This document shows positions 13,484 to 64,000 of a DNA stretch of 64,000 bases, piece by piece. Each line of letters starts with the position of its first letter. Positions within the stretch are counted from its first letter, which is position 1. The notes under the pieces were generated by a model that saw only the letters and a program-made list of their open reading frames with translations, ran no database searches and was not told the DNA's origin. Origin of the DNA: an uncultured Enterobacteriaceae bacterium (GTDB lineage Bacteria > Verrucomicrobiota > Verrucomicrobiia > Opitutales > UBA953); contig CAZWIK010000007.1 in NCBI GenBank assembly GCA_964633895.1, positions 104-64,103 of the forward strand, written 5' to 3'. The position numbers and the translations under genes are program-made.

Positions 13484-13505
13484 TTTTTTTTCGGAAAAGG
13501 AAAAA

Positions 13506-44772: not shown

Positions 44773-44785
44773 GCCGAAAAAAAAC

Positions 44786-47407: not shown

Positions 47408-47537
47408 CGTTCCCGCGATGCGGAATGATTTTTTTTTCGTGTGAATATGTTTTTCTTTCATTTGAGACAATTTGCGGATAACCTTTTCTGCAATGAGAGG
47501 CTTGGATTTCATACCCCCCCCCCGAAAACTTAACTGA

Positions 47538-47933: not shown

Positions 47934-47975
47934 CGCCGTCGCATTCTCCTTTCTCGATCTTCATAACATAACTAT

Positions 47976-50510
47976 ATGAGCCGTTTTTACAATCGAAATT
48001 TAACACCAGAAAACATTATGCCGAATCTGAACAAACTCACGCCGGAACAGGCGAAAGAATTATTCGACTGGTATTGGACCTACGGTTGCAAGCGGAAGGG
48101 CGCTTATTTGCTTTCCCGCGGCGGCTGGTTCGATAAGCTCCACAGAACGCTTTCCCGCTATTCGGACATTCGGTTTTCCGAAACGCATTTCAAGCGTCCT
48201 GCGGTCGCGATATGGGGACCGTCGCAGTCGGGAAAATCGACGTTGCTGGCGACTTTTATCGACCACGAGGACGGCGCGCTGAATTGGGCGGGAGACAATT
48301 TCAAGTTCGTCGCCAGCGAGGGCAAAAGGCTGAATCCGAATAACCGCGGGAGTGACGCGTCCGGATGCGTTACCCGCTACGTGATGCGCAATTCCGTTCT
48401 GCATGAGGACGCTCCTGCCGAGATTCAGTTCGCGCGGGAACGCGACGTTTTCATGTCGCTTGCCTTCGGATATCTTTCCGAGATGGAGGGAATTGATAAA
48501 GACGGACGCCAGAAGTATTTCGACGCGGAAAGTCTGCGGAAGCTACTTGAAGACGCGAAGGGCGGCAGGTCGAATTTTTCGCCGAAGAAAGAATTTTTCC
48601 CGATGCTGGCCGCGGTCGCCGACGTGCTGGAAGCGCTGATTAAGGCGAAACAGGAGCGTTATTCCAATCTCGGAGGAAATCAGTGGGCGGTCTTGCGCAA
48701 CGATATATTCAACTGCGATGCGCTTCTTGAGAGCGAAGATTCCGTGATGAACTTCGCGGCGGAAGTGTTTTGGGACGGCTGGGAAAGCCTCACGGACATC
48801 TGCTGGGATCTTTTGGGAAAACTGAAAGAAATCACGCGCAGGTTTTCGGGAAAGAAGGTTTTCTGTTCGTTGGATCTCGCTTCAATCCTTTTGGATATCG
48901 CGGCGGCGGAAAATGCCGAAAGCAAAGAAAAAATCGCCGACTTCGGCATTGACGAAACCGCTGCAGACGCTGTCGTCATCGGAAGGGGACACGGCGCGTT
49001 CTCAGACGAAAACGATTTTGCCTTGACGCAGGCGCTCGTCGCCGTGCTGGTGATTCCTCTGCGGGACCGCGTCATCGAGAAAGCGAATCCCGCGCTCTTC
49101 GAATTGCTGAAGATTGCGGACATCGTCGATTTTCCGGGCATCGCCAACGAAGAGCGAGGCGTTCGGGGAACGCAGCTGAACAATGAAATTCTGAAAGCGA
49201 ACCGACTTTTGGGGCTGACCAAGGTGCTCAAGCGCGGGAAGACGGCATCCATCGTCATCGGCTATTCCCGCAATCTCGATATTGATGTTTTCGCGTTGCT
49301 GATGCGCATGAATAAATATCCGCCGAAGCCGGATCAGCTGAATGCGGGCATCGCTTCGTGGTTCGCCGAAATGCTACAGAAGGATTTTAGCGAGAGAACC
49401 GCGGCGGAACTTCCGATAAACATCGTCCAGACGTTCGCTTCGGAGCTGGTGAATTCGGTCCGTCAGACGGCGATTAACAAAAAAGGTTTGCGCGAAATAT
49501 TTGAAAAGAACGACAGACTCGGAGCGCTCTGCAAGCCTGGCTGCGTAAAGTATTTCGCCGTCAATTATCCTCAATTTAAACCGGAATGCGATATTTCAGC
49601 GGAAGGTGAGGAACTGGGGAGAATCATCGAAAAAATCGAAAACGACGGCACTTTTTCGGAGCATTACGCGGGAACGTCCGAGTCTTTGCGCCAGATGTGC
49701 GGGCTCAGCGGTCCCGGCGGGAACGACGGCGGTCGCACGTATCTTTTCGAATATCTCCTCAAACAGGTGAAGAGTTCCACACGGCAGAATCTGCTCGACC
49801 GGAAAAAGCGGGCTCTCGGTGACGATTTTTCGTCCGTAATTGAAGAAGCCATACCTGCAGACGGAGACGAAAATGCTCGACGGAGAGAAGATATTCAGCG
49901 GGTCTACGATGGCATCGTGAAGCGCGCGGCATGGGACCATGAAATCATTTCTCGGGAGATTCTCCGCTTTTCGAATATTCGTCCGGAAGACCTGGCACCC
50001 GTTCCCGTCGGCGTTTCCGAAGATGTTTTCCACAAATACAGCGAAGATGTCCTTGACAAGGTGAAGTTCTCGCTTACGCAGTCCCGACTCGGGACCGCCG
50101 TAGGCGTCGAGGAAGAATTCATCGGTAGCAGAATCGCCGCTTATTTCATGGACGGAATCTCTTCACGGGAACTGAAAAAATGGATTTGCAAAAATCTGTC
50201 GGTGTTGGCGCAGAGCGACACCGATGACTGGAAAGCCGCCGCAAGACGCCCTCTCGCGCTTCACTTAGCGGCGCAGCTTTTGAGACGCGGAAAAGACGAA
50301 CGGCATCGTGACGATGCTCAGGATTACTTCAGCCGCGTCTCAGAAAAAGCCGACGAGGACATAGATTATCGGTACTCTCCGGACTATGTTTCCGTAATTG
50401 CTCCGTTCCTGAAAACGCTGAAAAACATAGCGCAGGAAAGCACAAATTCTCGCGGGTGTCAGGAAGGCGACAACGAGCTTCGCGCCATCATCAATTCATT
50501 AAACGATTAA
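47976..50510 (+). CDS. srfC: SrfC-like (virulence factor family) large P-loop GTPase/dynamin-like protein
   Basis: WGPSQSGKST (G1), NPNNRGSDASGCVTRY (G2), VDFPG (G3) and KRGK, resembling SrfC motifs. Confidence 0.8.
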   Translation: MSRFYNRNLTPENIMPNLNKLTPEQAKELFDWYWTYGCKRKGAYLLSRGGWFDKLHRTLSRYSDIRFSETHFKRPAVAIWGPSQSGKSTLLATFIDHEDGALNWAGDNFKFVASEGKRLNPNNRGSDASGCVTRYVMRNSVLHEDAPAEIQFARERDVFMSLAFGYLSEMEGIDKDGRQKYFDAESLRKLLEDAKGGRSNFSPKKEFFPMLAAVADVLEALIKAKQERYSNLGGNQWAVLRNDIFNCDALLESEDSVMNFAAEVFWDGWESLTDICWDLLGKLKEITRRFSGKKVFCSLDLASILLDIAAAENAESKEKIADFGIDETAADAVVIGRGHGAFSDENDFALTQALVAVLVIPLRDRVIEKANPALFELLKIADIVDFPGIANEERGVRGTQLNNEILKANRLLGLTKVLKRGKTASIVIGYSRNLDIDVFALLMRMNKYPPKPDQLNAGIASWFAEMLQKDFSERTAAELPINIVQTFASELVNSVRQTAINKKGLREIFEKNDRLGALCKPGCVKYFAVNYPQFKPECDISAEGEELGRIIEKIENDGTFSEHYAGTSESLRQMCGLSGPGGNDGGRTYLFEYLLKQVKSSTRQNLLDRKKRALGDDFSSVIEEAIPADGDENARRREDIQRVYDGIVKRAAWDHEIISREILRFSNIRPEDLAPVPVGVSEDVFHKYSEDVLDKVKFSLTQSRLGTAVGVEEEFIGSRIAAYFMDGISSRELKKWICKNLSVLAQSDTDDWKAAARRPLALHLAAQLLRRGKDERHRDDAQDYFSRVSEKADEDIDYRYSPDYVSVIAPFLKTLKNIAQESTNSRGCQEGDNELRAIINSLND

Positions 50511-50526
50511 CCGGAAAGTTCGCATT

Positions 50527-53244
50527 ATGTCAGAAGAAACAGAAGAAATCAAATTCAATTTGTTTCCCGATACAGGGCATCATTACCTGTTCATTCCCTT
50601 GAAAGACAGAGGTCTCGCACAAGCACAGGCGGAGAGTAAGGTGTGGCACTGGATCGATTCGTATCCGTGGCTTCTTTGGCGTAGCGGCGAGAAGAACGGC
50701 GAGTCCGGCATATGGTTGTGCGCAGAAACGAATCAGGGAACGACGGCAAGAGCCGTTTTTTCCAAGGACGGCGAGCACGGAGACGGAAATCCGCCGGAAG
50801 AATCGAAATCTCCGTATGTCGCGGAATCGTCTTCGGGCTCGCTGGGAAATAAACGGTTCAGCCTGCCAGTCGACACGGACAAGAAAATACGGATTGAATG
50901 GCAAAAAGCAGGAGGAAAAGATCCGCTGGACGTGGACTTGATCGTCGATTTCGGGAACACGCGGACAACCGTGTTGGCATTGGAACATAAGCAAGAGAAA
51001 GGACGGACGGATCTGGTCGACTGTTGCAAATCCGTTTTGTTTTTGCGGCGCGGAGAAGAATTCGACGGCGAAAGCCTTAAGGAACGGAACAACGAGGATT
51101 CTTCCCGAAAGATTGTCGATTCCTGGTTTGTGCTGAGAGAACCGGAGTTCTCGGAACAGGAAACGCGATATGAGATTTCCCGCTATGAGACGGGAATGGA
51201 AACGCGCAAGGCGAAATTTTTCGGGAAGAAGAACGTCCCAGTTTGGCAGGAGAAGAAATATACGGCTCAGATGTTCGTCGAGGTTTCGCCGACGGTAATG
51301 GGATCGGAGTGCGAAGAGCGGCTTCGCCAGTCGAATTTGGGAAAGGGGGAATTTTTTACGATGAGTTCTCCCAAGCGCTTTCTGTGGGACAACGAAGTCG
51401 GCGCGGTCGGACGCGAAGGCAACATGGAATGGGGAATGCTTTCTCGCCGATCGGACGCGGACGTGAAGACACTTTCGGGAACGATTTGCCGCTACACTTA
51501 CGAGAACGGACGCGACTGGGAAATCGACAACCCGCCATTCATGGACAAAAACGACCGTCCGACGAGCAATCCGAAGTATCCGGGATTTCCGCGGCGAGAG
51601 GCCATGGTTTGGGCGGCGCTGAACATCCTTGAAACCGCTTTTCGCGAAATCACGTCGTTCAAGTGGCGGGAACGCGATGTGCAGGGGATTGTCCGCAGGG
51701 TGAAGACCGTTTCCCTGACGTTCCCGTCCGGCTGGGTCGCGGACGAAATGCGCGCCTATGAGCGGGCGTGGAAACGCGCGGCGGATATTTTCGCGCTCTC
51801 TCATTTCGCGAACCCGAAGGCGGATCGTCCGGAAGTCAAAATGGAAGTCGACGAAGCGGTCGCGTCTCAGCTGCCTTTCGTTTATTCCGAAATCAGACGG
51901 CTCGGCGGGGACGTTTCCGCCTGGATTCGCCTTTTCGGCAAAGGCGAATCCGCGCGCGTGATGACCATCGATGTCGGAGGCGGCACGATGGACGTGTCCG
52001 TCGTGGAATATCGCGACCATTGTGCCGATGCCGGAATTTCCGGGGCCCATTTAGAATACAAGCTTCTTTTTCGCGACTGCAACACCAACGCCGGAGACAA
52101 TGCCGTCAAGCGCATTATCGAGAAGTTGCTTCTGCCGGGGATTTTCAACTGCTGCGATCGTCTTCAGGGCGACGACGTCGACGGGAATAGGCGAAAATTC
52201 AAGGGACTTTTCGGAAAGTCGCCGTCGGAAGCGGCGGACAGGGCGATACGTTCCCGCATCGCGAAACTTGTGTTCGTTCCCGTTGTCCGCAGGTGGCTGG
52301 GGTGCCTGTGTTCGGGAAACACGCGCGGCATTACCACCGGCGACGACGGCAGGCCGATGAGCATCGAAGATCTAATCGGAGAAGTCGGGCGCGATGCGCT
52401 TGTTGATTTGGAGCGTTTGCTGGGAGAGACGTTCGGCGGAGATACGACGAAACTGGTGCTGGATACGACGAGACCGATTTCGTTTGACGCTGAAACCGCG
52501 AAAAAGTGCATCCGCGACGTGCTTGACCGAGGAATCACGCCGATTGCAAAAATCATTGCTGCGCTGGACGTGGATATCGTTACGGTCAGCGGAAAAATTA
52601 CGGAAATTCCGGATATCCGCGACATGCTTCAGGAACGTCTGCCCGTTCCCGGGCAGCGGATCGTTACGATGAAGAACTACATGGCGGGGAACTGGTATCC
52701 GATGTCGCAAGAAGGGCGCATCGCCGACGCGAAAACCGTTACGGTCGTCGGCGCTGCGCTGCTACGCGCGATTCGAAACGGACTTATCGACGGATGGACG
52801 ATCAAAAGCGACGGCGATTTGCGCCCGCCACCGAATTATTGGGGCGTGCTTCCGGCAAGCGAACGCGGCGGATTTCAAGGAGATAAAAAAATCATTACGC
52901 CGACAACGAACGCAAGCGAAGATTGGTTTCGGATTCGTATCGGAAGCCGAATCGGGCGCCTCTCCGTTCCGTCCCGCATTTCGCGTCCCGAACAGGTTTA
53001 CGAGCTACGCTGGACCGATTTTGAACGCAGAAAGCAAGGCAATAAGACGATGACGATTATTGAGGCAAAATTCAGAAGGGAGATTTCTCCGCAGGGAGAA
53101 TCTCTGGTTCTGACGGAGGTTCGCGGGCTAGAAGGGGAACCGCGCGTCGATTTGGGCGACGTGGAGCTTAAACTTTGCACGATGGAACGTGAGAGGTTTT
53201 GGCTGGACGAAGGATGCTTCAATGTTCGGTTTGAAGAAAACTGA
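50527..53244 (+). CDS. srfB: SrfB-like Hsp70/actin-fold ATPase
   Basis: VDLIVDFGNTRT, SSPKRFLWD, LTFP, DEAVASQ, IDVGGGTMD and AKTVTVVGA. Confidence 0.85.
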   Translation: MSEETEEIKFNLFPDTGHHYLFIPLKDRGLAQAQAESKVWHWIDSYPWLLWRSGEKNGESGIWLCAETNQGTTARAVFSKDGEHGDGNPPEESKSPYVAESSSGSLGNKRFSLPVDTDKKIRIEWQKAGGKDPLDVDLIVDFGNTRTTVLALEHKQEKGRTDLVDCCKSVLFLRRGEEFDGESLKERNNEDSSRKIVDSWFVLREPEFSEQETRYEISRYETGMETRKAKFFGKKNVPVWQEKKYTAQMFVEVSPTVMGSECEERLRQSNLGKGEFFTMSSPKRFLWDNEVGAVGREGNMEWGMLSRRSDADVKTLSGTICRYTYENGRDWEIDNPPFMDKNDRPTSNPKYPGFPRREAMVWAALNILETAFREITSFKWRERDVQGIVRRVKTVSLTFPSGWVADEMRAYERAWKRAADIFALSHFANPKADRPEVKMEVDEAVASQLPFVYSEIRRLGGDVSAWIRLFGKGESARVMTIDVGGGTMDVSVVEYRDHCADAGISGAHLEYKLLFRDCNTNAGDNAVKRIIEKLLLPGIFNCCDRLQGDDVDGNRRKFKGLFGKSPSEAADRAIRSRIAKLVFVPVVRRWLGCLCSGNTRGITTGDDGRPMSIEDLIGEVGRDALVDLERLLGETFGGDTTKLVLDTTRPISFDAETAKKCIRDVLDRGITPIAKIIAALDVDIVTVSGKITEIPDIRDMLQERLPVPGQRIVTMKNYMAGNWYPMSQEGRIADAKTVTVVGAALLRAIRNGLIDGWTIKSDGDLRPPPNYWGVLPASERGGFQGDKKIITPTTNASEDWFRIRIGSRIGRLSVPSRISRPEQVYELRWTDFERRKQGNKTMTIIEAKFRREISPQGESLVLTEVRGLEGEPRVDLGDVELKLCTMERERFWLDEGCFNVRFEEN

Positions 53245-53274
53245 AATCCGGGAAAATTAACGAAACGAAAAAAT

Positions 53275-54345
53275 ATGGGAGAAAGTATAATGATTTTCGT
53301 GGATCGTCACTGGCGCGAGCTTTGCGTCGTCGGCGTAATCCTAATCCTAATCCTAATCGTGCTTCTTCGGTATTTGTGGCGCAAGGAACGCGACGGTCGG
53401 GGTGCGGAAAAGCCCGTTCCCGCAGAGCAGGATCGCATGAACGACGGTCTTTTTTCCGACGACACTCCTGACGACGAACGAGCGTCAGAAATTGACGCCC
53501 TTCGTCGGCGAAATGAAGAGCTTCTTCAAGAAAATGAAAACCTTTGTCAGCGAATTAAGCAGAAGGATGCAATCTTGGGAAAGAACCAGAGCCAAGTCGA
53601 CCAGGAAAAACAAACGGCGGTAGCTGAGGCGGAAGAGCGGGTTCGCAAGGAATACGAGAAGAAGCTGAGTGACCGGGAGACGGAGCTTCTGGCGAAGTAT
53701 CGGGCGCGGCTGCAAGGGAAAGAGCAGGAATTCGCATCGGAAAAACGCCGCATGGAAGACGAAAAGCGTTCGCTGATCAAGCGATACGAAGAAGAGTCTG
53801 CACGGAAAGACGAGGAACTTGCGCTCCGTGCAAAGGAGAGTGCCGAAATGCTTTCCCGTTTTTGGCCGAATCCCACCGACGGGAACGCGGATCTGACTCC
53901 GGTGTTCCGTGCCTGGGTCACGGAGATGCGTGACGCGGAAACGGTTTCCGCTCCGGTGATGGGAATGCTCTCGCAGTTGTTCTGCTGGAAATCCGCCGTT
54001 GCCGACGGTGCGCTGAAACGGCAGTATGACGCGCTTGCCGAATTCAGCCGAAACTTCATCAAATGGTGTGCGTCGCAGAACAAATCGACGGAGGAAACGT
54101 GGGAACTGGCGGATAAGTTTGCCGCGGCGTTCAACGAAAACGTCTTCCCGAAAGCGGAAATCGCCTCGGAAAAGAGATACAGGGTTTTCGTTCCGGAAAT
54201 TTCTTCCGCCTACAACGCAAGGCAGATGTTCCCGAGTTTCCGCGGAGAAAAAGCGGGAAGCGTTTCTAAAATCGAGTCTTGGGGCATTGTCGAAACCGGA
54301 AAGTCCGCGACGGTTCAAAAGCGTGCGGACGTCGTATTGAAATAG
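53275..54345 (+). CDS. TM-anchored coiled-coil protein with GrpE-like C-terminal head
   Basis: N-terminal TM, long charged coiled coil, then FVPEISSAYNARQM...GSVSKIESWGI...QKRADVVLK, which parallels the GrpE beta-domain pattern. Confidence 0.55.
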   Translation: MGESIMIFVDRHWRELCVVGVILILILIVLLRYLWRKERDGRGAEKPVPAEQDRMNDGLFSDDTPDDERASEIDALRRRNEELLQENENLCQRIKQKDAILGKNQSQVDQEKQTAVAEAEERVRKEYEKKLSDRETELLAKYRARLQGKEQEFASEKRRMEDEKRSLIKRYEEESARKDEELALRAKESAEMLSRFWPNPTDGNADLTPVFRAWVTEMRDAETVSAPVMGMLSQLFCWKSAVADGALKRQYDALAEFSRNFIKWCASQNKSTEETWELADKFAAAFNENVFPKAEIASEKRYRVFVPEISSAYNARQMFPSFRGEKAGSVSKIESWGIVETGKSATVQKRADVVLK

Positions 54346-54361
54346 CACAAAAGGCTTCGTT

Positions 54362-55759
54362 ATGGGCGAATACGTTTTAAAATTCGTTAAGACGGGAAAA
54401 CAACCCGACAGCATCCCCGGCATCGAAATCAAATATAGTCCGGAAAATCTGTTTTACATCGACCAGATCAAGGGCAGGGCGTTTTGGGACGATGCGGACA
54501 CGCGGCGGATAATGTCCGAGCGTTTCAAGCGTTATATGGCGAGCATGGAGCCGCTGGACGGGAACCGCGTTCGCGCGCGTCTGTTCTGCGGAAAGACGGA
54601 AGTGCTCTCATGCAGTTTTCCGTATTCGACGCACGGGAAAAAACTCTCGAAACAGGAACTCGACGGATACGCTGCTCGCTTGGAAAAACTCGGGGAACTC
54701 GGACGTTCTCCCGATGCGAGCGAGCGGATGAGCGATATTTCAAACCGTTTTCCCGTCGCGGATCCGAAGGAGGATCCCGAACTCTTTCGCGTTTACAAAT
54801 ACGACGGAGAATGGCGGCTTGCGGTAATCTGGGGGCTGACGGGAACGACGGGCGAAAAAATCGCGTCGGTGGGAACGCACCGCCTGCCGGTGAGCGGAGA
54901 TCGCCGTTCTTGGGCGAAGCTGCTGATTCTGCTACTGTCACTGCTACTGTCGCTGCTGTTGGCGGCGTTGATCGGACTGCTGTGCTGGCATTATTTCGGA
55001 AAGGAAAAAGTCGGCGGCGACGACGCCGTAATCGCCGTCGAAGACGAAAGATCCGGTCTGCGTCTGGAACGTGGCGAAGCGCGGCTTCTGCCGGACGGAA
55101 AATATGAAATGCCCGCGCGCTTCTGCGTCGGAGAAAAAGCGCGGCGTCCGCGGGCGTTCTGCGACGGAGAGGAGATTACAATCGCACCTGTCGGACCGAC
55201 GGAAAAGTTTCTGACGCTTTCCGCGGGAGAACATGTTCTGGAGCTGCGGGAAGACGCGTTTCTGCCGCCGCCGAAGGAATTGTCCCTGCGCTTCACGCGT
55301 CCGTCCCCGTCCGCCTCTCACGACGGGGACATGAGGGGAAGTCAGACTGCGTCTGCGCCTTCAGCCCGAACGGACATATCCTCTGCGGGAACGCGACCTG
55401 TCGAATCTGAAAACGGCGGTTCGGTCGGCGACGATTCCGCTTTCGGGGGCGAAGATATTCGAGCCGTCGCTGAGGGTAAGCCGCCTCAAAAACTCTCATC
55501 TTCCCAAGCGTATAAGCTCGACTACAATTATACGTCAGGCGGCGATTCCGAATTCGGAACGGTCGAGATTCGGGTCAAACAAAAGCCGTTCGGAACGAAA
55601 CTGCGTTCCGTGGTTTATAACGGAGTGCCTGCCGAGCGCGTCGGCGACGATTGCTTCTGTATCCGAGGCATTTCCGCAGATGCCGGGATAACGGAGGCTC
55701 GGTGTGAATTCAGCGACGGGTCCAGCATCGTGTGCGATTTCAAGGAAGTCTTAAAATGA
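54362..55759 (+). CDS. SrfA-like membrane protein
   Basis: FPVADP..PELFRVYKYDGEWRLAVIWGL resembles the SrfA N-domain end; then a Leu-rich TM and an extracytoplasmic low-complexity/beta region; located next to srfB/srfC. Confidence 0.6.
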   Translation: MGEYVLKFVKTGKQPDSIPGIEIKYSPENLFYIDQIKGRAFWDDADTRRIMSERFKRYMASMEPLDGNRVRARLFCGKTEVLSCSFPYSTHGKKLSKQELDGYAARLEKLGELGRSPDASERMSDISNRFPVADPKEDPELFRVYKYDGEWRLAVIWGLTGTTGEKIASVGTHRLPVSGDRRSWAKLLILLLSLLLSLLLAALIGLLCWHYFGKEKVGGDDAVIAVEDERSGLRLERGEARLLPDGKYEMPARFCVGEKARRPRAFCDGEEITIAPVGPTEKFLTLSAGEHVLELREDAFLPPPKELSLRFTRPSPSASHDGDMRGSQTASAPSARTDISSAGTRPVESENGGSVGDDSAFGGEDIRAVAEGKPPQKLSSSQAYKLDYNYTSGGDSEFGTVEIRVKQKPFGTKLRSVVYNGVPAERVGDDCFCIRGISADAGITEARCEFSDGSSIVCDFKEVLK

Positions 55760-56118
55760 AAAAAAGAATGTTCATTTTCCTGTCGTCTCTGTGCATGGCG
55801 AGCGGATGCGCGGACTGATTTCTGCCCGAACCGTGCGCGCCTTATGTGCGAGCGGCATACGAAAAAGCGAAAACGGGAGACAAATCCGCGCAATACGAGT
55901 TGGGAAGCTATCTGCAGCGCGGGGACGGCGTGCCCGAACCCGATGCTTCCGGTGCGGTTTATTGGTATGAAAAATCTTCCGCTCAGGGCTACGTTCCCGC
56001 GAAAAACAATCTCGCAAATCTTTACCTTTCCGGCGACGAGAGCGTCCGCGACGAGGAACGGGGACGGGAACTGCTCTACGCGACGGAAAACGCAGGCGAA
56101 CTTGAAAACGAAAACTGA
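55756..56118 (+). pseudogene. Sel1-repeat lipoprotein interrupted by in-frame TGA
   Basis: MKKRMFIFLSSLCMASGCAD*FLPEP...AQYELG..AVYWYEKSSAQG; TGA at 55816-55818; ATGA overlap with the upstream stop. Confidence 0.7.
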
Positions 56119-56138
56119 ATCCTGAAAAAAATCAAATC

Positions 56139-57878
56139 ATGGCAAGAATCTGCATTCTTGGAATCAAAAGCGCGGGAAAGACGGTCTTCATCTCCGTTTT
56201 GGCGAATCGTTATCGCGAAATCAGAGACGGAAAACCGTATATGGAATTCAAAAACGTTCGGACGAACCGATACGTTTCCGAAATTTGGGATAAGCTGACG
56301 CGGGAACGCATGTGGCCGGATTCCACGCCTCCGGGCGAACGGCTGGTTTTGCAATGGGGACTACATGCGCCGGATGGGCAGGAGCATTTTATGAAAGTGC
56401 TCGACGCTCCCGGGCAGGACGTCGCGGCTATTTTTTCCGAAGCGGAGAGCCTTTCACCTTCGCAGAAAATTCTCGCCGAAAACATAAAGGAATCCGACTG
56501 TATCGTTTTTCTCATCAATCTACGGGAAATCATTCAGGCGGAATCGGCGAAAGCGGCGAAAGATCGCTCCGATTACGAGAACCCGATCGTCATCGCGATA
56601 ACAAAACTGCTGGCGCGCCGCGTGCGTGTGGCGATTCTCCTGTCTCAGCATGACCGTCTGAAAAACTATCTCCGCGAAGAGAAAAACTTTTTCTGCGACA
56701 GCGAAGAAGAAGGCAAAGAGCGGACGCTTGCGAGCGAGACGGCGGGAACACCACCGGCGATAGACGTGCTGAAACGCTTCCTGCCCTCCGCCTACGGCGC
56801 GTTGAAAGATCGCCTCGCGCGGAAAGATTCCGGCGTCTATGTCGACTTCGTTTCCGCCGTCGCAGACACGGAACTGGTCGCGGACGAGACCAGTGGGAAA
56901 ATGCTGAGCCGTCCCTGCGAGAATTTCGGATCTTACGGGCTGGACGAAGCCGTGGCGTGGATGGTGAATTCGCTTTCTTCGGCGCATCGGGATCGCGTCG
57001 ATGAACAGTTCGCCCGCGTGAAAGAGTCGCGCGTTCGGCGGGCGGTTATTTTCTTTTTGATTGCGGCGGTTTGCGCGAGAGCGGCGATGATTGCTCCACA
57101 GATGCTTGAAGATCACATGAAAAAGAGTGCGAAGACAGAATTCGATCTTATTCTTGAAGAGGATGAAGCGGTATTGAAGCGCGAGATGTCTGAAAATAAA
57201 AAGAAGGATGATCAGATTTCCGCTGAGCGGGAAAAGCTGAAAGGCTATTTAGACAAGGAATATACCTGGAGGATCGTAGACGGGAGAGAATACTCGTGGC
57301 GGATTTACGGCGATAGTGATACGCGTTTTCTTCAGAAAGATGATGTGTATTTAAAAAACCTGTCGGAAGAGACCTGGGTGAACGCAAAAATGGAAATCAC
57401 CCCTAACTCTTCCAGCGAGGAACCGTTTACGCTGAATTTTGGAAATGTCGCTCCAGGGGAAGAGGTCATGAGGCCTTACGTGTGCAATTTCCACGAAATG
57501 GGCGGTAAAGTATCTCTTAAAATCGAGGTGCGCGATTACAAGAAAGAGAAAGAAAACAAGGAGCGTTTTTCCGCGGAAAATAAAAAGCTGGATGAAAGAA
57601 AACTCGCGCTTGCGCAGGACCTCAAGCAGGCACACGCGCGGAAAGAAGATAGCGACTCCAAAGCCGAACGGCAAGAAGCGCAGGCGATCGAAGACGCCGC
57701 GAACAGGGCGAAATATGTCAAAATCGCCGGCATCGTCGCCGCCGCGTTATTCCTTTTCTGCGCGCTGGTCGATCTCGCGACTTTGCCGTTCGAGCAGGCG
57801 CGCATTCGTCGCCGCGAGAAAAAAAATCAGGACGCATCAGACTTTTCATCGATACAACAGAGAGAGGAACAGCTATGA
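56139..57878 (+). CDS. TRAFAC-class GTPase (double-GTPase-system-like) with TM-extracytoplasmic domain-TM tail
   Basis: ILGIKSAGKT (G1), DSTPP (G2), LDAPGQ (G3) and atypical G4 SQHD; two hydrophobic helices flank a coiled-coil/beta insert. Confidence 0.75.
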   Translation: MARICILGIKSAGKTVFISVLANRYREIRDGKPYMEFKNVRTNRYVSEIWDKLTRERMWPDSTPPGERLVLQWGLHAPDGQEHFMKVLDAPGQDVAAIFSEAESLSPSQKILAENIKESDCIVFLINLREIIQAESAKAAKDRSDYENPIVIAITKLLARRVRVAILLSQHDRLKNYLREEKNFFCDSEEEGKERTLASETAGTPPAIDVLKRFLPSAYGALKDRLARKDSGVYVDFVSAVADTELVADETSGKMLSRPCENFGSYGLDEAVAWMVNSLSSAHRDRVDEQFARVKESRVRRAVIFFLIAAVCARAAMIAPQMLEDHMKKSAKTEFDLILEEDEAVLKREMSENKKKDDQISAEREKLKGYLDKEYTWRIVDGREYSWRIYGDSDTRFLQKDDVYLKNLSEETWVNAKMEITPNSSSEEPFTLNFGNVAPGEEVMRPYVCNFHEMGGKVSLKIEVRDYKKEKENKERFSAENKKLDERKLALAQDLKQAHARKEDSDSKAERQEAQAIEDAANRAKYVKIAGIVAAALFLFCALVDLATLPFEQARIRRREKKNQDASDFSSIQQREEQL

Positions 57879-59267
57879 TTCATTGGTTTGCTTACGATCA
57901 CTTCAATCCTGCAAATCCTTCCGAATATTGGCGTAGTGTTCCCGAAGGAACGCCGCTTCCAGATTATGCGAAATTCATTCCGACCGAAGAAATTCCAAAG
58001 GCATTCCCGTCGTCAATCGAATGTAATTCATGGCGCGGCGGCGACTTCATCGCGGGAATGAAAATTTCCGCCGAACGCGCCTGCATTTTCAGAATTTTTG
58101 ATGGCGGGAACGATTGTAAAGGGCGACGCAATCGCTGGGTGATGCTCATGGCGGAGGGCGACCGTGAGGATTTCGCGGGAACGGATCTTTTGTCCGCTGT
58201 GGACAGCGAGACGTTTAACGCGTTCGCCGCGAGCGCGAAAAAAACCGACGGTTGCACCGCCCGCGCACCAAGAGCCATGGTGGAACTCCTCCGCGGCGAA
58301 GCTGTCCGAGCCTTGTTTCGAGCGCATTGACGGTGCGGACGCGGATAGAAAAATCCGGGAGATGTCCAAGGCGTTTTCCTCCACGCCGAACTCGGAAGGC
58401 TTGATTTTGGTCCGACGCTCGGGAACGAGCCTGCGCGCGTCCGTTTCTGTCCGCATCAATCGAGCGCACGAAACGTCGTCTGTTCCGCGAAATGCCGCGT
58501 CCGGCGCAACAAGCCGATTTTACGAAAAAAGGACGGAATCTCCGCCTCCGCGCGACGTTCCCGCGTCCGCCGTGTGCGGGCGACGGAAATTGCCGATATT
58601 CTTGTCGTTCGCCGTCGGCTTCTTGTGCGCAGGGATTCTTTGGTATATCTCGTATGGCGCGCTTAACGGAAAGTACAACGACCTTGAACGTAAGCTCGAA
58701 GGAAAAGAATCACTTGTGCGAGAGTTGGAAAATGACAAAACGCGCTTGAAAGAAAAAATAACATCCTTGAAAGGTGAGAACGACCGCCTGACGAAACGTA
58801 ATGAGGAGTTGAATAACAGGCTGAACGGTCAAGATGAGACTTCCTTTCTAGGGCAGATGTGCGCGCAAATCACAAAACACCTGCACGCCTTTGAAGAAAG
58901 TTTTAATAGACAGATGGAGCAGTTGGATCAGATGAAGAAAGCAGCTCTCAAGGAACTTGAAGAAAGCGTGAAGGAAATTCAGAGCAGGATAGACAGAGTT
59001 AAAGACAGTTCGAAGGTGCAGCCGCTGCCGGATTCGTCCAAATTCGGCAAATTTGAAAAAGGCGAAGGTAACTACGCATTCAAATTCATAATTGAATCCT
59101 GGAAAAAAGAAAGGTCGTCTATCGTCTGGCATGGCAAAAACGACGTGGTTTTCATCATTTGGATTCCGGATTCCTACCCTACTGACGAGGCGATAGAAGT
59201 ATGTATGCCCGAAAAATTTGAGGTTTATCCGACCTGGTGTTTCTACTGCAACAAGTGCTCAGATTGA
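57875..59267 (+). pseudogene. GAP1-N-like domain + TM + coiled coil, split by a frameshift at an A7 run
   Basis: GGNDCKGRRNRW motif. Removing one A at 58238-58244 fuses ORFs 57875 and 58164 into a 463-aa ORF. Confidence 0.55.
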
Positions 59268-59271
59268 CGCG

Positions 59272-60639
59272 ATGGCGGACATCTGCATCCTTGGGCTCAG
59301 TGGCGCAGGGAAAACGGTTTTTATTTCCGTTCTGACGAGCCGTTTCCGCGAAATTCGTGACGGCGAACCGTATTTCGCTTTTAAAAATGCGGGAACGAAT
59401 CTCTACGTTGCGACCGTCTGGGATAAACTGACGCGTGATCGCGAGTGGCCGGATTCCACACCGCCGGGAACGCGGCGGGTTTTGGAGTGGATACTGCACA
59501 CACCGGACGGGAACGAACACGCGCTACACGTTCTCGACGCGCCGGGACAAGACGTGGCGGCGGTTTTTTCTGCGGACGATGCGACCGAACTCAGTCCGAA
59601 CCAGCGAGAACTCGCGTCCCGAATCGAATCTGCGGGCTGCGTCGTTTGGCTCATCAATCTGCTGGAAATCAGGCTGGCGAATTCCGCGGCGGAGCGCGCA
59701 AATTATGAATCCGCCGTCGTCGTGGGAATTCTTCGCCTGTTGGCGCGCCGAGTGCGCGTCGCCGTTCTGATCGCGCAGCATGATCGCCTGAAAGCGAACT
59801 TGTATTCCGGCATCGGGTTCGTCAGCGACGACGAAAGCGCGGAAAAAACGCTGAAAACGGAAACGGCGGGCGTTTCTCCGCTTGACGTGATTCGCGAATC
59901 GCTCCCGTCGGCATACGCCGTGCTGAAATCCCGGATTGAAAAACGCGATCCGCTCGTTTATCTGGATTTCGTTTCCGCTGTCGCGGACACGGAAACGGTG
60001 CGCGATGCCGACGGAACCCTGCGGTCGCGTCCGGCGGAGAATTTTTCGTCTTACGGACTTGCCGAGGCGTTGGCGTGGATTTCCTCGAGCGTAGAGGGAA
60101 TCGAACGCGAGAACAAGGCGGCGGTCCGGATCGCGACAAAAACGCACGTCCGCGGGAACGCTTATCACATCGGATTCGCGAAAGCGACGAGGAGGCTTTA
60201 TGCGCGAATGTTCAATTTTTCCGGACGCGCCACGCGTTCGGAGTTTTGGAAAGGATTGTCGGTTTCGATTACCGTGTTTTGTCTGTTGAGGTTTGTTAGT
60301 GCGGAAACGTCGCTGGAAGTTGCTTTATCACTTTTATTACTATTACCATTTGTTGTCGTTATTCCGCTCTTCGCTCTAACGGTTCGGCGTGCGCATGATA
60401 TGGGTGTTTCTCTTTTTCGTTTTTTACGTATAGGTGGAGGTATTGTTTTGCTTATTGTTTTGCTTGGAATGATTTTTGACGACATCTTCAAAAGCGAGGT
60501 CATATTTAGCTCTGTCTCCATCGTTCTCGTTATTTGTGTTTTCGGGATTTTCCTCATCGCCTTGTGCTTGTGTGATTCCGATGTCGGCAGGAATAAATAC
60601 GGCGACTCCGAGAAATATCCTGATGATGCGCGTGCTTGA
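59272..60639 (+). CDS. Second paralogous GTPase fused to a DUF805-like membrane domain
   Basis: ILGLSGAGKT, DSTPP, LDAPGQ and AQHD; C-terminal FNFSGRATRSEFW...VRRAHDMG...GRNKYG is the DUF805 pattern. Confidence 0.8.
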   Translation: MADICILGLSGAGKTVFISVLTSRFREIRDGEPYFAFKNAGTNLYVATVWDKLTRDREWPDSTPPGTRRVLEWILHTPDGNEHALHVLDAPGQDVAAVFSADDATELSPNQRELASRIESAGCVVWLINLLEIRLANSAAERANYESAVVVGILRLLARRVRVAVLIAQHDRLKANLYSGIGFVSDDESAEKTLKTETAGVSPLDVIRESLPSAYAVLKSRIEKRDPLVYLDFVSAVADTETVRDADGTLRSRPAENFSSYGLAEALAWISSSVEGIERENKAAVRIATKTHVRGNAYHIGFAKATRRLYARMFNFSGRATRSEFWKGLSVSITVFCLLRFVSAETSLEVALSLLLLLPFVVVIPLFALTVRRAHDMGVSLFRFLRIGGGIVLLIVLLGMIFDDIFKSEVIFSSVSIVLVICVFGIFLIALCLCDSDVGRNKYGDSEKYPDDARA

Positions 60640-60728
60640 TGTCGCGCGGGAACGCGTGCGGAGTTATTTTTCATTAAACGAGTTATTTTGATCGAAAGAG
60701 AGACAATAAAACAAAGAATACGAAGAAG

Positions 60729-63700
60729 ATGATGAAGAGAAAAATCCTTTTGCTGATTGCCGTTTCCGCGCTGGGCGTTCCCGTTCCGGCGCTTTTCTCC
60801 GCCGAGGATTTCGCGCCGGCGGTGCGGGCGGAAGCGCGAGTTGTCGAGTTCGACGTTCCCGTGCTGAGCGTCTGCGGGAGCGGAGAAAATGCGGAAGGGC
60901 GGTTTTCCCGTCTGCCGTTCAAGTTCCGGCGGACGACGGCGGAGGCTCCTTTCCGCGTGTCGATCAGTGACGACGTCTCGGGCGGGAGCGGCGAGGAGAT
61001 TCGTTCGAGCCTTTGGAGTGCGGCGACGGTCGCGGCACTGATGCGCGGAGATTTGATGAGCGGCGTTCGGCTTAGTGTCGATTTTTCCGGAAACGTGGAC
61101 GAACCGAGCGCGGGTGGCGTGCTTTGTCTCGCGATTTTGAGCGCGCTCGACGGACGCGAATTTCCGAAGGACTTCGCGATGACAGGAACGATTCTGCCGG
61201 ACGGGAGCCTCGGGCTTGTCGGCGGCATCGATAAAAAAATGGAGGCGGCAGCGAAAGCCGGAATCAGGCGCGTGTGCATTCCCGCGCTGGGGCGGGTGGA
61301 AAACGACGGGAACACGAACCTCTTTGGGGATCTGGTCAAATGGGCGGAGTAGCTCGGCATCGAGCTGATTCTCGCGGAAACGGCGGAAGAAGCTTATGCA
61401 GCGGCGCATCGTCTGCCGCTTCCGGAGAGGAAGACGGTTTCGGAGCGGGCGGCGTTGAGTCTGCCGCGGGAACAGGAAGAAGCCTAGTTTTCCGGATTTT
61501 TTGATAATTTCAACGCCTGCGGCGCAATCGCGCGGCGGCACGAAACGGAAATCGAACAGCAGGATCCGTTTTTGTCGCGCTATGCGGAAGAGTGCTATCG
61601 TCGTTCTTTGAGGCTGTTGAGAGCGGGATATTTTCAGCGGGCATGGGAAAATTCATTCGAAAGCCTGCTGTTTTGGCGCGCGTGGGATGAATCCTCCGCG
61701 TTGAAAGAAGCGTTTTGGCGCGCGCGACCGAATGCGATGAAATCTGTCTTCGAAGCTGCGCTGGCGGATTCCGACGCCGCCGCGACGGACGCCGACAGAA
61801 ACCTGCTCGTCGAGTTCCGGAATTATCTGGGGGGGGGGAGAAATTAAAAGACGCTCCGACCGCGCCGCGTTCGTCTGAGCGCGGGGACGGCGTTCCCGCG
61901 GAATCTTGGGGCGTCGGCTATTATCGCGACGCGCCGTGGGAAACGGAAATTTCCGCGCAGTTCGAGCCGGTGCTTTCGTCGGCGGATTCGGACGCGTGGA
62001 GAACCTTTTTCAGACGGGAATTGAAGACGACGTGTCGAAAGTCGGCACGAAGCGTGAAATCGTAATGCAGATGAACCTGTCGGGGTATCAGGAAATTCTT
62101 GCCCGCGTCGGGCTTGCCCGAAAAAACGAAGGCTCTTATTTCCTGAAGATCGCTGAGGTTACGCCGCAGATTCGAGGAAACGCGAATTTGGCGAAGGCGG
62201 CGAATTTTTATTACTCCGCGCGCAACGCCGTTTCCGAAAATTTGCGCAACGGATTTCGTGACGAGGTTTCCGAGGACGACGATCGGTATCTGTGGCGTTT
62301 CATCTACGGTTGCAACGGGAGCGACGAGCTCTGCGACGCCGTGCGTCTGGGAAAAAAGGAATCGGATCCGAGCTACAACGCGCTGGCGCGCATCATTGCC
62401 GACTGCCGGCTGTTGGCGCAGGGGGCGGCTCTTCAGATCAAATACGGTCCCGATGTCGGAGCCGTGGAATCGGAGTCGCTCGGCGTCAATTCTTACGAGA
62501 ACACCTATTTTCTGGACGCGCTCATCCGCACGGCGCGGATTCAGGCGCTGAACAGCATCGGCGAATGTCGGGAACGCAACATTCCGTGTCCGGCGGCGCT
62601 TTCCGCGTTCGTCGAAGCGGACACTTCCCGCGGCGATTTCGCGCGGGATCAGCTTTTCGACATGCTGGCGAATTATTGGACTGCGGGCAACATCGCTCAG
62701 GCGCTGACGCTTTGTTTCGATCCGCAACCGACGACGGAGGAGGCCGCGGCGCGCGGGAACGCCGCCGCGCAGTTCCTGCTCGGACGTCGCGCTACACTGC
62801 GCAACGATATTGATGCCGCACGCGAATTTTTGTCGAAATCCGCGGCTCAGGGCGACGCCCGCGCGCAGTATTATCTGAGCCATCTTCTCGATGACGGAAA
62901 TGTCGTGCGGGATTTGCTGGAAAAATCCGCGGCGCAGAATTTCATTCCCGCGCAGGAGGAGCTGGCCTCTGTGTATTGGTTCGGAGACGAGGATGCCGGC
63001 GTCGAGCAAGATAGGAAAAAGGCGTTCAAACTTTTTGAGAAAGCGGCGGAGGCAGGGTCTGTCACGGCGCAGGAGGTGCTCGCGAATATTTATATTAACG
63101 AAGACGAAATCGTCGAAGTCGACGCGGCGCGCGGTCATGCGTGGCGACGGATCGCGGCGGAGCGCGGGGACGCGTTTGCGCAGTTTTGGCTGGCGTACGA
63201 TTTTTCGCGAGGCACGCCGTGGAGCGGAAAAAATGCGGAAAGCGCAGCGCGCTGGTTTTCCCGCGCGGCGGAACAGGGGAATGCCTCAGCTCAGAGTCGG
63301 CGCGGCGAGTGTTATTCTTACGGGAACGGCGTCGAACGGGATTTGGAGAAAGCGTTCGGCTGGTATTTGAGGTCGGCGAAACAGGGAGACGAGGTCGGGC
63401 AGTTCAACGTCGGGATCTGCTTTCTTTTCGGACACGGCGTGAGGCGGAATTACGCGCAGGCGGTGCGATGGTTGAGAGAAGCGGCGGAAGCCGGAAACAA
63501 GGTCGCGAAGATGTTTCTTTCCACGTTGCAGATGCCTCGCGTGCATGTTCCCGATACCGATTTTTTCATCGGCGCGCACGAGGTCCGACAACTCGAATAC
63601 TGGATGTTGATGGATGTCGGAAATTCTTCCGCGAATAAAGGCGATGATCTGCCCGTGGAAAACGTTTCCTGGGACGACGCGATGGAATTTTGCCGCCGGC

Positions 63701-64000
63701 TCACCGCCTAGGAACGCGCGGCGGGAACGATTCCGGACAATTACGAGTATTCGCTCCCGACGAAGATTCAGTGGATCACCGCGTTTCGTGCGGGAACGAA
63801 TACGCCTTACAATACGGGCGCGACGGAAGAGGATCTCGCCCGCGCCGGCTGGTATGCGGGAAATTCCGGAAACCGTTCGCACGCGGTCGGACAAAAAGAG
63901 CCGAACGCATGGGGCATTTACGACATGCACGGGAACGTCTGGGAATGGTGCGCGGACGCCGCCGAAAACAACGATTCCATGCGCGTCGTGGAAGGCGGGA
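60729..64000 (+). pseudogene. Large interrupted exported protein: Lon-like S16 protease domain + helical region + Sel1 repeats + FGE-sulfatase domain (partial)
   Basis: DEPSAGG...GGIDKKMEAA (Ser-Lys dyad), Sel1 repeats and NAWGIYDMHGNVWEWC. In-frame TAGs at 61350, 61485 and 63709; frame changes near G10 (61829-61838) and about 62005. Confidence 0.7.

Follow-up and report, generated by a model that had tools for sequence, protein, structure and literature searches.

The window analyzed herein is a stretch of 64,000 nucleotides of DNA. At positions 47976 to 64000, it carries an island of nine genes in a row, in the order SrfC-like, SrfB, g3, g4, small Sel1, GTPase 1, g7/8, GTPase 2, and Lon_C-Sel1-FGE. 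The row is present as a preliminary description had reported it: all genes lie on the plus strand of the ORF map, with spacers of only -4 to 89 nt. Gene limits were revised: the GTPase partner is one frameshifted gene, and the Lon_C, Sel1, and FGE ORFs are one broken gene. Two ATGA start/stop overlaps are a sign of an operon, and a hydrophobic anchor or signal segment was seen by hydropathy in six of the products. The features are as follows.

47408..47975, plus strand: upstream spacer of ~570 bp, 3' of the housekeeping HrpB helicase gene
47408-47427: terminator-like hairpin in the upstream spacer
47514-47523: C10 tract in the upstream spacer
47976..50510, plus strand: large SrfC-like P-loop NTPase of 844 aa, intact (PF10139, Virul_Fac)
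50527..53244, plus strand: SrfB, Hsp70/actin-fold ATPase, 905 aa, intact (PF07520)
53275..54345, plus strand: g3, 356 aa, with a TM segment at the N-terminus (16-34), a coiled coil in the cytoplasm, and a C-terminal domain (~190-356)
54362..55759, plus strand: g4, SrfA-like bitopic protein, 465 aa (hydropathy topology, hhalign)
55756..56118, plus strand: small Sel1 lipoprotein gene, start overlapping the g4 stop (ATGA); signal MKKRMFIFLSSLCMASGC
56139..57878, plus strand: GTPase 1, 579 aa, intact (PF19975, 25.8 bits)
57875..59267, plus strand: g7/8, conserved GTPase partner, start overlapping the GTPase 1 stop; frameshifted here
59272..60639, plus strand: GTPase 2, 455 aa, intact (PF19975, 28.5 bits; DUF805, 4.4e-13)
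60642-60661: terminator-like hairpin between GTPase 2 and the Lon_C gene
60729..64000, plus strand: exported Lon_C-Sel1-FGE-sulfatase gene, disrupted (signal peptide, Lon_C, Sel1, FGE)

The spacer at 47408..47975 is the probable promoter region of the island; no sigma-70-like site was scored in it. The contig stops 237 bases past the window, and the last gene of the island runs off the window. The GC content is 53.5% in the island versus 59.3% in the flank. The 9-mer GCGGGAACG, which is hyper-abundant in the genome, is 3.3-fold rarer in the island (14 versus 46 expected, P=3e-8). The flanking genes in a sister species (G013) differ from those found here; the island has another genomic context there. 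The composition and the differing flanks in G013 indicate that the island is of foreign origin and was acquired.

The SrfC-like protein matched PF10139 at 61.5 bits (cut-off 28.1). The match covers residues 66-445, in the N-terminal half only, and profile positions 35-388 of 878. The motifs GPSQSGKST (81-89), DFPG (385-388), and KRGKT (419-423) are invariant across 6 homologs, down to 25% identity. Topology prediction found no TM segment or signal peptide, and no solved structure related to SrfC was found. This protein had been called dynamin-like; Dynamin_N (PF00350) did not match it at E<=0.01, and the two neighbors of the related GTPase in the sister species G006 score 64 and 51 bits with the same model. 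The Hsp70/actin-fold ATPase that had been proposed is verified. SrfB matched PF07520 at 214.1 bits against a cut-off of 27.1, and its three ATPase motifs, phosphate-1 DxGNxRT (141-146), phosphate-2 DxGGGTxD (482-489), and SGK..E.P (~688), are conserved in 33 homologs. No signal peptide or TM segment was found in SrfB by topology prediction. The gap between SrfC and SrfB is 16 nt. SrfC was upstream of SrfB in every locus with an ORF map examined, and the srfA-srfB-srfC order was not encountered there.

The third gene encodes a candidate membrane-tethered co-factor of SrfB. Its coiled coil varies in length among relatives, and its C-terminal domain is conserved. The label GrpE-like, given to g3 at the outset, is weak. 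GrpE (PF01025) had no Pfam match at E<=10 in 7 orthologs; with hhalign, the C-terminal part of g3 (~300-350) fell on the beta domain of GrpE (133-186), in the register to be expected but with poor scores (P=0.032, Prob 1.6%; P 0.23-0.58 in the controls). In the predicted topology of g4, the N-domain (20-170) is cytoplasmic, a TM segment occupies residues 187-205, and the ectodomain is periplasmic and beta-rich. The length and repeats of the ectodomain differ between strains, and repeats or N-runs are present in orthologs. In the AF2 model, the N-domain has a pLDDT of 70-91, and the ectodomain looks like a beta-sandwich, with no significant fold match. When g4 was compared with 15 SrfA sequences by hhalign, 26 columns aligned (P=6e-4, Prob 28.5%), with g4 143-169 on SrfA 136-161. 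The C-domains of g4 and SrfA are not similar (hhalign P=0.34). The SrfA model NF040486, which scores 452 bits on Klebsiella SrfA, matched nothing in the island at E<=0.01. The earlier SrfA label thus keeps one motif and the shared topology but not the family model, and on that motif and topology g4 is probably a divergent SrfA.

SrfA, SrfB, and SrfC have been labeled 'virulence factors' for 25 years, and no mechanism for them was found in the Srf literature. In the canonical srfABC of Proteobacteria (SsrB-regulated in Salmonella; Xenorhabdus; Klebsiella and Methylobacterium plasmids), SrfB (PF07520) and SrfC (PF10139) are adjacent, as they are here. Both arrangements include a bitopic partner whose cytoplasmic N-domain spans ~165 aa, whose TM segment lies near residue 200, and whose C-part is periplasmic; the motif '.VY..nG.l...WG' occupies the same position in it. 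Sel1/TPR, peptidase, and FGE-sulfatase genes lie nearby in both; the published neighbors of canonical srfABC are proteases, TPR/Sel1, FGE, vWA, and LolF-like ABC proteins (bioRxiv 10.64898/2026.09.18.752743). The island differs in its order, which is C-B-(g3)-A-like instead of A-B-C. It also differs in that SrfC matches its model in the N-half only, SrfB is 25-27% identical, vWA and ABC genes are absent, and g3, two membrane GTPases, and g7/8 are extra.

The similarity to srfABC raises the question of an exported toxin, delivered in vesicles to eukaryotic cells as for Xenorhabdus stockiae. Recombinant Xenorhabdus SrfABC is reported to be cytotoxic and insecticidal (PMC6950479), and export by outer-membrane vesicles was proposed in the 2026 preprint. 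However, the SrfC and SrfB of the island have no signal peptide or TM segment, they carry conserved NTPase motifs of the housekeeping type, and the proteins partnered with them face the envelope of the producer cell. The family is also common in free-living and commensal PVC bacteria, with SrfC sources in soil, sediment, fen, marine, and gut MAGs. An exported toxin is therefore very improbable at this locus.

The two further GTPases named in the preliminary description are confirmed as paralogs, 59% identical; their DNA is 71-82% identical. With the cut-off of 27 for PF19975 (DO-GTPase1), GTPase 2 passes at 28.5 bits and GTPase 1 fails at 25.8, and a relative in G006 scores 32.3. GTPase 1 is predicted to have a cytoplasmic Ras-like domain (1-290), a TM segment (302-320), a periplasmic loop of ~210 aa, a second TM segment (529-547), and a basic tail. 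Its motifs are GIKSAGKT (G1), DAPGQD (G3), SQHD (G4), and SAVAD (G5). In GTPase 2, the paralogous GTPase domain is fused to a multi-pass DUF805 membrane domain. The Walker B glutamate is a defining feature of DO-GTPases (PMC7159879). No such glutamate is visible in the hhhLDAPGQD motif of 8 of 8 aligned domains, as mapped by eye and without the alignment of the PMC7159879 authors.

The ORFs at 57875-58330 and 58164-59267 correspond to one gene of 340-398 aa in L002, L005, L015, L016, L017, and G006. Here a +1 change of frame in an A7 run (58238-58244) splits it. For the g7/8 product, an N-domain of ~190 aa in the cytoplasm, a TM segment, and a coiled coil in the periplasm are predicted. It had been named GAP1-N-like, a name that is not supported: at E<=5, no GAP1 Pfam model was among the matches listed for the first of five intact orthologs, nor among the 25 families that the five share most. 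The AF2 model has a pLDDT of 67, and Foldseek gave no match below E=0.1. The AF2 models were mediocre overall, without a significant Foldseek match. Among 5.8 billion proteins, the close family comprises 9 clusters for the GTPase and 4 for g7/8. These families are tiny, and 'conserved' therefore means conserved within one narrow lineage.

Damage is found in three genes, namely the small Sel1 gene, g7/8, and Lon_C-Sel1, and all lesions fall within the island's second half. The small lipoprotein has Sel1 repeats at 55846-56118 (4.4e-12) and an in-frame TGA at 55816-55818; intact orthologs of 126 aa are present in L016 and L011. The Lon_C domain (PF05362, 60729-61352) reaches 44.8 bits (cut-off 21.1; 1.4e-11), and its Ser-Lys dyad can be read in the sequence as the PSAG serine and the GGIDKK lysine. 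It is followed by an ORF at 61572, a Sel1 block (61906-63711, 8.6e-39), and an FGE fragment (8e-4), and the four pieces are one gene of 935-1018 aa in relatives. Alignment to intact orthologs of 1018 and 935 aa placed the lesions at TAG codons 61350, 61485, and 63709 and at frameshifts in a G10 run (61829-61838) and near 62000. TAG is an ordinary stop codon in the window. No AAA+ module was found in Lon_C-Sel1; a signal peptide takes its place. The claim of a Lon-type protease thus holds for the catalytic domain, but the frame is broken and an S16 peptidase domain without the AAA+ module is not a Lon protease proper. The three lesions indicate that the full gene set is dispensable in this strain, and in this genome the added module is likely to be decaying or to have been switched off.

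The linkage between the Srf genes and the GTPase was verified in relatives. Counting the window, 7 of 7 assemblies that carry the GTPase subfamily have the GTPase behind g4 and the small Sel1 gene. The C-terminus of g4 precedes the GTPase gene in L002/L003/L004, L005 (the same as G013), L015, L016, and L017, and the 5'-cut ORFs ahead of the GTPase in L003, L005, L015, L016, and L017 are this C-terminus. In G013, two contigs abut inside g4; in L002, the gene order is the same and the adjacency spans a scaffold gap. The linkage is retained at 40-60% protein identity. The Srf and GTPase halves therefore do co-occur beyond this genome, contrary to the possibility, raised at the outset, that they never do so elsewhere.

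The pairing of SrfC with SrfB is found widely among PVC-group bacteria. Among 43 SrfC-like loci, SrfB was scored beside SrfC in 30. A GTPase of the island subfamily was found in 0 of 40 SrfC-SrfB loci outside those of the 'Spyradenecus' genus (G013/G015), and loci without the GTPase occur in Akkermansia, Opitutales, and others. Two sister species of the same genus that have no SrfB, G006 and G018, carry Dynamin_N proteins of 640 and 350 aa, a related GTPase, and a PqiA-like protein; G006 additionally has a g7/8 homolog and an 813-aa Sel1 protein. Since the modules are found apart, their coupling could be loose. Two unrelated accessory modules, SrfCB-g3-g4 and GTPase-g7/8-Sel1, might even sit side by side in a hot spot of acquired genes with no functional coupling. 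The core alone in Akkermansia, Opitutales, and others, the related GTPase module alone in G006/G018, an 86-nt spacer in an older gene call, and the confinement of lesions to the second half all agree with this. It is nevertheless quite unlikely, because the GTPase stands behind g4 and the small Sel1 gene in all seven assemblies of its subfamily, the Sel1 start overlaps the g4 stop, and the genes still stand in this order at 40-50% protein identity. The GTPases of G006/G018 also belong to a more distant branch (E~1e-56 versus 1e-140). The proposal of one machine is accordingly sustained by the linkage in relatives and weakened by the separable modules and the three damaged genes.

Systems of DO-GTPases and GAP1 proteins have been described computationally, including a GAP1-N2 theme that brings in HSP70 and GrpE (Kaur, Burroughs, Iyer, Aravind 2020, PMC7159879), and they contain FGS effectors and Sel1 as a wall-binding domain (PMC7159879). 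These descriptions qualify the earlier view of the present combination as unfamiliar. The island shares with them two paralogous TRAFAC GTPases, of which one passes the PF19975 cut-off and the other falls just below it, and a conserved gene directly downstream of the GTPase. Some components are TM-anchored in both, and both include an Hsp70-fold ATPase and a peptidase along with an FGE/FGS domain and wall-binding repeats. It differs in that GAP1-N/M/C, GASH, and FNIII were not detected by Pfam in its proteins, its Hsp70-fold protein is SrfB and not a DnaK-like HSP70, and its SrfC has no counterpart. In place of the downstream GAP1 stands g7/8, which is only ~350 aa long and has a coiled coil besides its TM segment.

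An anti-phage or conflict system of the DO-GTPase kind can be drawn from this similarity. The GTPases and g7/8 would form a threshold switch, the g4 ectodomain and FGE/Sel1 parts would bind the invader, and cell arrest or death would be brought about by SrfB/SrfC and the peptidase as effectors. The paired GTPases with PF19975 matches fit such a system, as do the published neighborhoods with HSP70 and GrpE, FGS domains, TM components, and peptidases (PMC7159879). The patchy distribution, foreign composition, shifting genomic location, strain-variable g4 ectodomain, and swapped C-terminal domains on GTPase 2 and Lon_C-Sel1 point in the same direction. On the other hand, PADLOC (PADLOC-DB 2.0) found no system in the island, with only a P-loop-level mad8 hit (E=3.6e-5) and coiled-coil noise, and the defense role first suggested gains nothing from it. 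The GAP1, GASH, and FNIII components were not found, and DAPGQD shows no visible Walker-B glutamate. The island neighbors are housekeeping genes only, known defense genes are absent next to it, and no DGR-type repeat was found at the island. PHROGs likewise gave no match for the island. Such a conflict system is judged unlikely, though less so than uncoupled modules.

The locus is best explained, with a probability of roughly 60%, as an acquired accessory envelope-spanning NTPase operon of the gut 'Candidatus Spyradenecus', in which a GTPase module is attached behind g4 to an Srf core. Among extended SrfBC envelope operons, it would represent a variant particular to this lineage. The core would comprise the SrfC-like P-loop NTPase, the Hsp70-like SrfB, the membrane-tethered coiled-coil g3, and the SrfA-like bitopic g4. 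The added module would comprise the Sel1 lipoprotein, one or two membrane Ras-like GTPases of the DO-GTPase1 family, g7/8, and the exported Lon_C-Sel1-LysM/FGE protein. The topology, with NTPase domains in the cytoplasm and Sel1, LysM, Lon_C, and ectodomains outside, is predicted from hydropathy and charge (positive-inside rule), and the envelope-associated machine envisaged in the preliminary description fits it. The signal flow and the role are inferred. The periplasmic parts may monitor the condition of the wall or outer envelope, or else bind a foreign ligand; they are the variable ectodomain of g4, the loop of GTPase 1, the coiled coil of g7/8, and the Sel1/LysM/peptidase protein. The membrane GTPases together with g7/8 would serve as the switch. 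SrfB and SrfC would dock on those domains of g4 and g3 that lie in the cytoplasm and perform nucleotide-driven work at the inner membrane, which could be remodeling, repair, or a suicidal response.

The Dynamin_N pair in G006/G018 sits where SrfC-SrfB-g3-g4 sits here, beside the related GTPase module. SrfC and bacterial dynamins are both large membrane-associated NTPases; SrfC has no detectable sequence similarity to the G006 dynamins, and the equivalence of SrfCB and dynamins in the sister species is positional only. A GTPase/g7-8/Sel1 module wired either to SrfC-SrfB-g3-g4 or to a dynamin-like pair would make SrfC/SrfB equivalent to dynamins. The SrfC/SrfB machine might then be a functional equivalent of bacterial dynamins and not a toxin, using nucleotides to remodel or repair the inner membrane under a Ras-like switch that reads the periplasm. 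This idea is tentative and rather doubtful; if true, it gives the long-unexplained Srf proteins a concrete cell-biological role. The locus adds evidence for Srf proteins as parts of a modular NTPase machine that spans the envelope of the producer cell and occurs in commensal and environmental bacteria, and it links them to the computationally described DO-GTPase/HSP70 conflict systems. Its value is comparative; the copy here is partly degraded and close relatives are few. It offers two experimental handles, a Ras-like GTPase switch with a conserved partner and the natural replacement of SrfCB by a dynamin pair in sister species.

C-terminal domains are also swapped in this family of loci: GTPase 2 occurs with DUF805 or FGE, and Lon_C-Sel1 with LysM or FGE.

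The row of co-oriented genes that begins at position 47976 is a genuine operon that was acquired. This lineage-specific variant joins a core of SrfC, SrfB, g3 and an SrfA-like protein to a portable switch module that is DO-GTPase-like; in the window genome, the operon is partly degraded. The HrpB helicase gene upstream is separated from the SrfC-like gene by a 570-bp spacer, and the spacers inside the island measure, in order, 16, 30, 16, -4, 20, -4, 4, and 89 nt. SrfC, SrfB, g3, g4, GTPase 1 and GTPase 2 are intact. The window (G000:C7:104-64103) belongs to a contig of 64,341 bases, and the description of the island stops short of its 3' end.

Genes of the island and upstream housekeeping genes (positions in the window)
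40164-42218, GcpE gene, housekeeping, upstream of the island
44708-47407, HrpB helicase gene, housekeeping, upstream of the island
47976-50510, plus strand, SrfC-like protein, 844 aa (PF10139, 61.5 bits, match to the N-terminal half only)
50527-53244, plus strand, SrfB, 905 aa (PF07520, 214 bits)
53275-54345, plus strand, g3, 356 aa
54362-55759, plus strand, g4, 465 aa
55756-56118, plus strand, small Sel1 protein
56139-57878, plus strand, GTPase 1
57875-59267, plus strand, g7/8
59272-60639, plus strand, GTPase 2 with DUF805
60729 onward, plus strand, Lon_C-Sel1-FGE protein, continuing past the window end

The GC content is 53.5% in the island versus 59.3% in the flank. The 9-mer GCGGGAACG is found 175 times in the window versus 3 expected; the island has 14 copies versus 46 expected, a 3.3-fold depletion (Poisson P=3e-8). 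These GC and 9-mer figures point to a later acquisition of the island. The nearest island-bearing assembly is G013 (GCA_045651325.1), labeled 'Candidatus Spyradenecus sp.', of a lineage of gut MAGs with genomes of about 1.7-2.2 Mb; there, the island has a GC content of 48% versus 56%, and the flanking genes differ. Genome G033 is a relative at the same-order level, Opitutales. A phage or mobile-element origin was considered and rejected, as the PHROG matches were confined to the LysM and DUF805 domains and no Rfam match was found; PADLOC, PHROGs and Rfam gave nothing informative on the island.

The 9-mer behaves like a genome signature word, of the uptake-sequence or REP-like kind, whose absence marks acquired blocks. 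Its density, 3.6 per kb in the core (8001-47407), falls to 1.1 per kb within the island and to 1.4 per kb across 1-8000. The word (GCGGGAACG / CGTTCCCGC) often lies within short hairpins, such as those at 47408-47416, 48434-48442, and 60646-60654. Positions 1-8000 form a second low-GC block (50-55%), with sparse signature 9-mers and a strong negative AT skew, and may be another acquired segment.

The island NTPases look functional by motif conservation. The WGPSQSGKSTL, DFPG, and KRGKT motifs are invariant across SrfC-like homologues with identities down to 25%, and the Hsp70/actin signatures DxGNxRT, DxGGGTxD, and SGK..E.P are kept in 33 SrfB homologues. GTPase 1 and GTPase 2 are 59% identical and carry G1 GxxxAGKT, G3 DAPGQD, G4 SQHD (SKxD in relatives), and G5 SAVAD. 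Both score near the threshold of the Pfam DO-GTPase1 model (25.8 and 28.5 bits, respectively, with a cut-off of 27), and one relative reaches 32.3 bits. No solved structure related by sequence to SrfC, SrfB or the small GTPases was detectable.

The topology was derived from hydropathy and the positive-inside rule applied to the sequence. SrfC and SrfB are predicted to be soluble. An N-terminal helix would tether g3 to the membrane, leaving its coiled coil and its conserved C-domain on the cytoplasmic side, and g4 would have a cytoplasmic N-domain, a single TM segment and an ectodomain outside. For GTPase 1, a cytoplasmic GTPase domain and two TM segments with a loop of about 210 aa outside are predicted; the C-terminal end of GTPase 2 is probably a multi-pass DUF805 domain. 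The g7/8 protein is predicted to span the membrane once, between a cytoplasmic N-domain and a coiled coil outside. A putative lipoprotein signal is present in the small Sel1 protein, and a putative Sec signal peptide in Lon_C-Sel1.

The preliminary description had joined an SrfABC core to a double-GTPase module, and this linkage is borne out beyond the window genome. The ENA scaffold L002 (40-50% identity) carries, in order, SrfC, SrfB, an extra coiled-coil gene, g3, g4, a GTPase, g7/8, and a second GTPase, with the adjacency spanning a scaffold gap inside g4. In five further loci of relatives (L003, L005, L015, L016, and L017), the contig begins just 5' of the GTPase, and the cut ORF corresponds to the last ~90 aa of g4. 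The contigs break at this place because of tandem repeats in the g4 ectodomain. In G013, the first 46 residues of L005 are the last 46 residues of the g4 fragment that ends the other contig of this genome; because of this identity, the two halves are contiguous. The core-GTPase linkage is conserved, though in a narrow lineage. A word-indexed search of 5.8 billion proteins returned only 9 clusters for the GTPase, and just 28 representatives fell below E=1e-30 in 1.84 billion; g7/8 gave 4 clusters, and no GTPase relatives were found in JGI metagenome contigs.

By their distribution, the core and the GTPase module are also separable. SrfC-like loci were collected at one genome per species, giving 43 from Akkermansia, Opitutales, Rubripirellula, 'Kuenenia', and others, and SrfB was scored as adjacent in 30 of them. 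Homologues of g3 and g4 are present in Akkermansia, and a g4 homologue in Rubripirellula. The GTPase was found in none of the 40 SrfC-like loci outside the 'Spyradenecus' genus loci (G013/G015). G015 is a weakened case of a core without the GTPase, as its contig stops 14 nt past the small Sel1 gene and absence at the assembly level is no proof. Within the genus, SrfB occurs in just 2 of 18 other species. Two sister species without SrfB, G006 and G018, encode a pair of Dynamin_N proteins (640 aa and 350 aa) together with a PqiA-like protein and a related GTPase (E~1e-56); G006 additionally encodes an 813-aa Sel1 protein and a homologue of g7/8. This dynamin pairing indicates that the GTPase/g7-8/Sel1 module is portable, its partner being one or the other of two types of large membrane NTPase. 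In the corresponding loci, L080 (G006:C11:83000-102000, at 4650-13705) and L081 of G018, the cassette also includes a Zn-ribbon protein; its GTPase is DO-GTPase1-like, and its membrane protein is PqiA-like/Zn-ribbon.

The NCBIfam SrfA model scores 452 bits on Klebsiella SrfA but does not match g4, and the pairwise comparison of g4 with SrfA was empty. A profile built from 8 homologues of g4, compared by hhalign with 15 SrfA proteins, gave P=6e-4 (Prob 28.5%), pairing 'RVYKYDGEWRLAVIWGLTGTTGE' of g4 (143-169) with 'FVYLVNGTLVITFWGFVHPEGE' of SrfA (136-161). This motif is the best conserved in either family and lies at an equal distance to the TM helix in both. The g4 layout also matches that of SrfA, described as an N-domain of ~165 aa and a periplasmic C-part on either side of a TM segment near 210 (bioRxiv 10.64898/2026.09.18.752743), but the two C-domains are unlike. 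Thus, g4 is probably a very divergent SrfA equivalent. A lipocalin-type SrfA-C with CxDGS, suggested by 'CEFSDGSSIVC' spotted by eye at the g4 C-terminus, was rejected (hhalign P=0.34; cysteines not kept in L005 or L016). A pseudokinase fold for the N-domain appeared only at fold-search ranks 29 and 34, with E>3, and was unusable.

The periplasmic part of g4 varies from ~260 to ~770 residues between loci (L002 8328-9584, L011 of G015 663-3548, and L003 3-416). It is made of repeated modules, with beta units of ~100 aa in G015 and short EEIVDPEDPKE-type repeats in L002/L003, and in several of the assemblies N-runs or contig ends fall in this periplasmic part.

The GrpE likeness proposed for g3 is unproven: no Pfam GrpE match was found even at E<=10, and hhalign placed the last ~50 residues on the GrpE beta domain, in the expected register, with P=0.032 and Prob 1.6% (controls, P 0.23-0.58). 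The GAP1-N-like label of g7/8 is unsupported by Pfam (no GAP1 match in five orthologues at E<=5), by a profile search of PDB sequences (coiled-coil noise only), or by an AF2 model with Foldseek (no match below E=0.1). A weak match to TagF (9t0n, prob 0.44) was set aside, and the N-domain has no recognisable relative. The g7/8 gene is a conserved partner gene occupying the GAP1 position.

The island shares themes with srfABC loci and DO-GTPase systems, yet some defining features of each are missing. On Klebsiella and Methylobacterium plasmids, canonical srfABC runs SrfA-SrfB-SrfC followed by a bitopic protein, with vWA, ABC, peptidase, and TPR genes among its neighbours; an FGE-family enzyme is a further conserved neighbour (bioRxiv 10.64898/2026.09.18.752743). 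Pairwise similarity to the Klebsiella 339-aa and vWA proteins and the Methylobacterium 336- and 593-aa proteins was not found. Paired DO-GTPases are described together with GAP1, and TM components occur in 67% of systems (Kaur et al., PMC7159879). The HSP70 and GrpE theme, a partner set of DO-GTPases, is present in 14% of GAP1-N2 neighbourhoods; FGS domains occur in planctomycete DO-GTPase systems, and Sel1 is counted among wall-binding domains (PMC7159879). The reading that best fits the predicted anatomy would be an envelope-surveillance or remodelling machine.

Akkermansia, which lacks the GTPase at these loci, has three vWA-TerF-like genes upstream instead. In L022 (5589-9956), an Akkermansia sp. 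MAG locus, three paralogues arranged in tandem and weakly vWA-TerF-like, together with a 430-aa coiled-coil protein, lie directly 5' of SrfC-SrfB, parallel to the vWA and tellurite-resistance-domain genes adjoining Klebsiella srfABC.

Three genes of the added module carry lesions.

Lesions in the island (positions in the window)
58238-58244, plus strand, A7 run with frame change in g7/8, a single gene of 340-398 aa everywhere else
TGA after codon 20, plus strand, small Sel1 gene, an intact 126-aa lipoprotein in L016 and G015
61350, 61485, and 63709, plus strand, TAG stops in Lon_C-Sel1, 935-1018 aa in relatives
61829-61838 (G10 run) and near 62000, plus strand, frame changes in Lon_C-Sel1

Recoding of TAG in Lon_C-Sel1 was rejected in favor of gene decay: both TAG and TGA serve as ordinary stop codons in the window, TAG terminates ordinary genes, g3 among them, Lon_C-Sel1 is also frameshifted twice, and its orthologues encode E/R and W where the first two TAGs lie. 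Stops of the substitution type speak for real decay, and the frame changes at homopolymers could reflect either errors or phase variation. No TR/VR-like repeat, as in DGR-type diversification of the FGE domain, was found in L005 or 47000-64000.

Lon_C-Sel1 ends in LysM in G013 and in the FGE-sulfatase domain in the window instead. The FGE-sulfatase domain switches partners between genomes (L005 4267-5664 in G013; window 63538-64000); in G013, it comes after a remnant of the second GTPase, the gene that has DUF805 in the window. Five G or C tracts of 10-11 bases are present in the 64 kb (7345-7354, 7455-7464, 36513-36523, 47514-47523, and 61829-61838), one in the spacer upstream of SrfC and another at a frameshift of Lon_C-Sel1; such tracts are possible sites of slipped-strand phase variation or points of assembly weakness.
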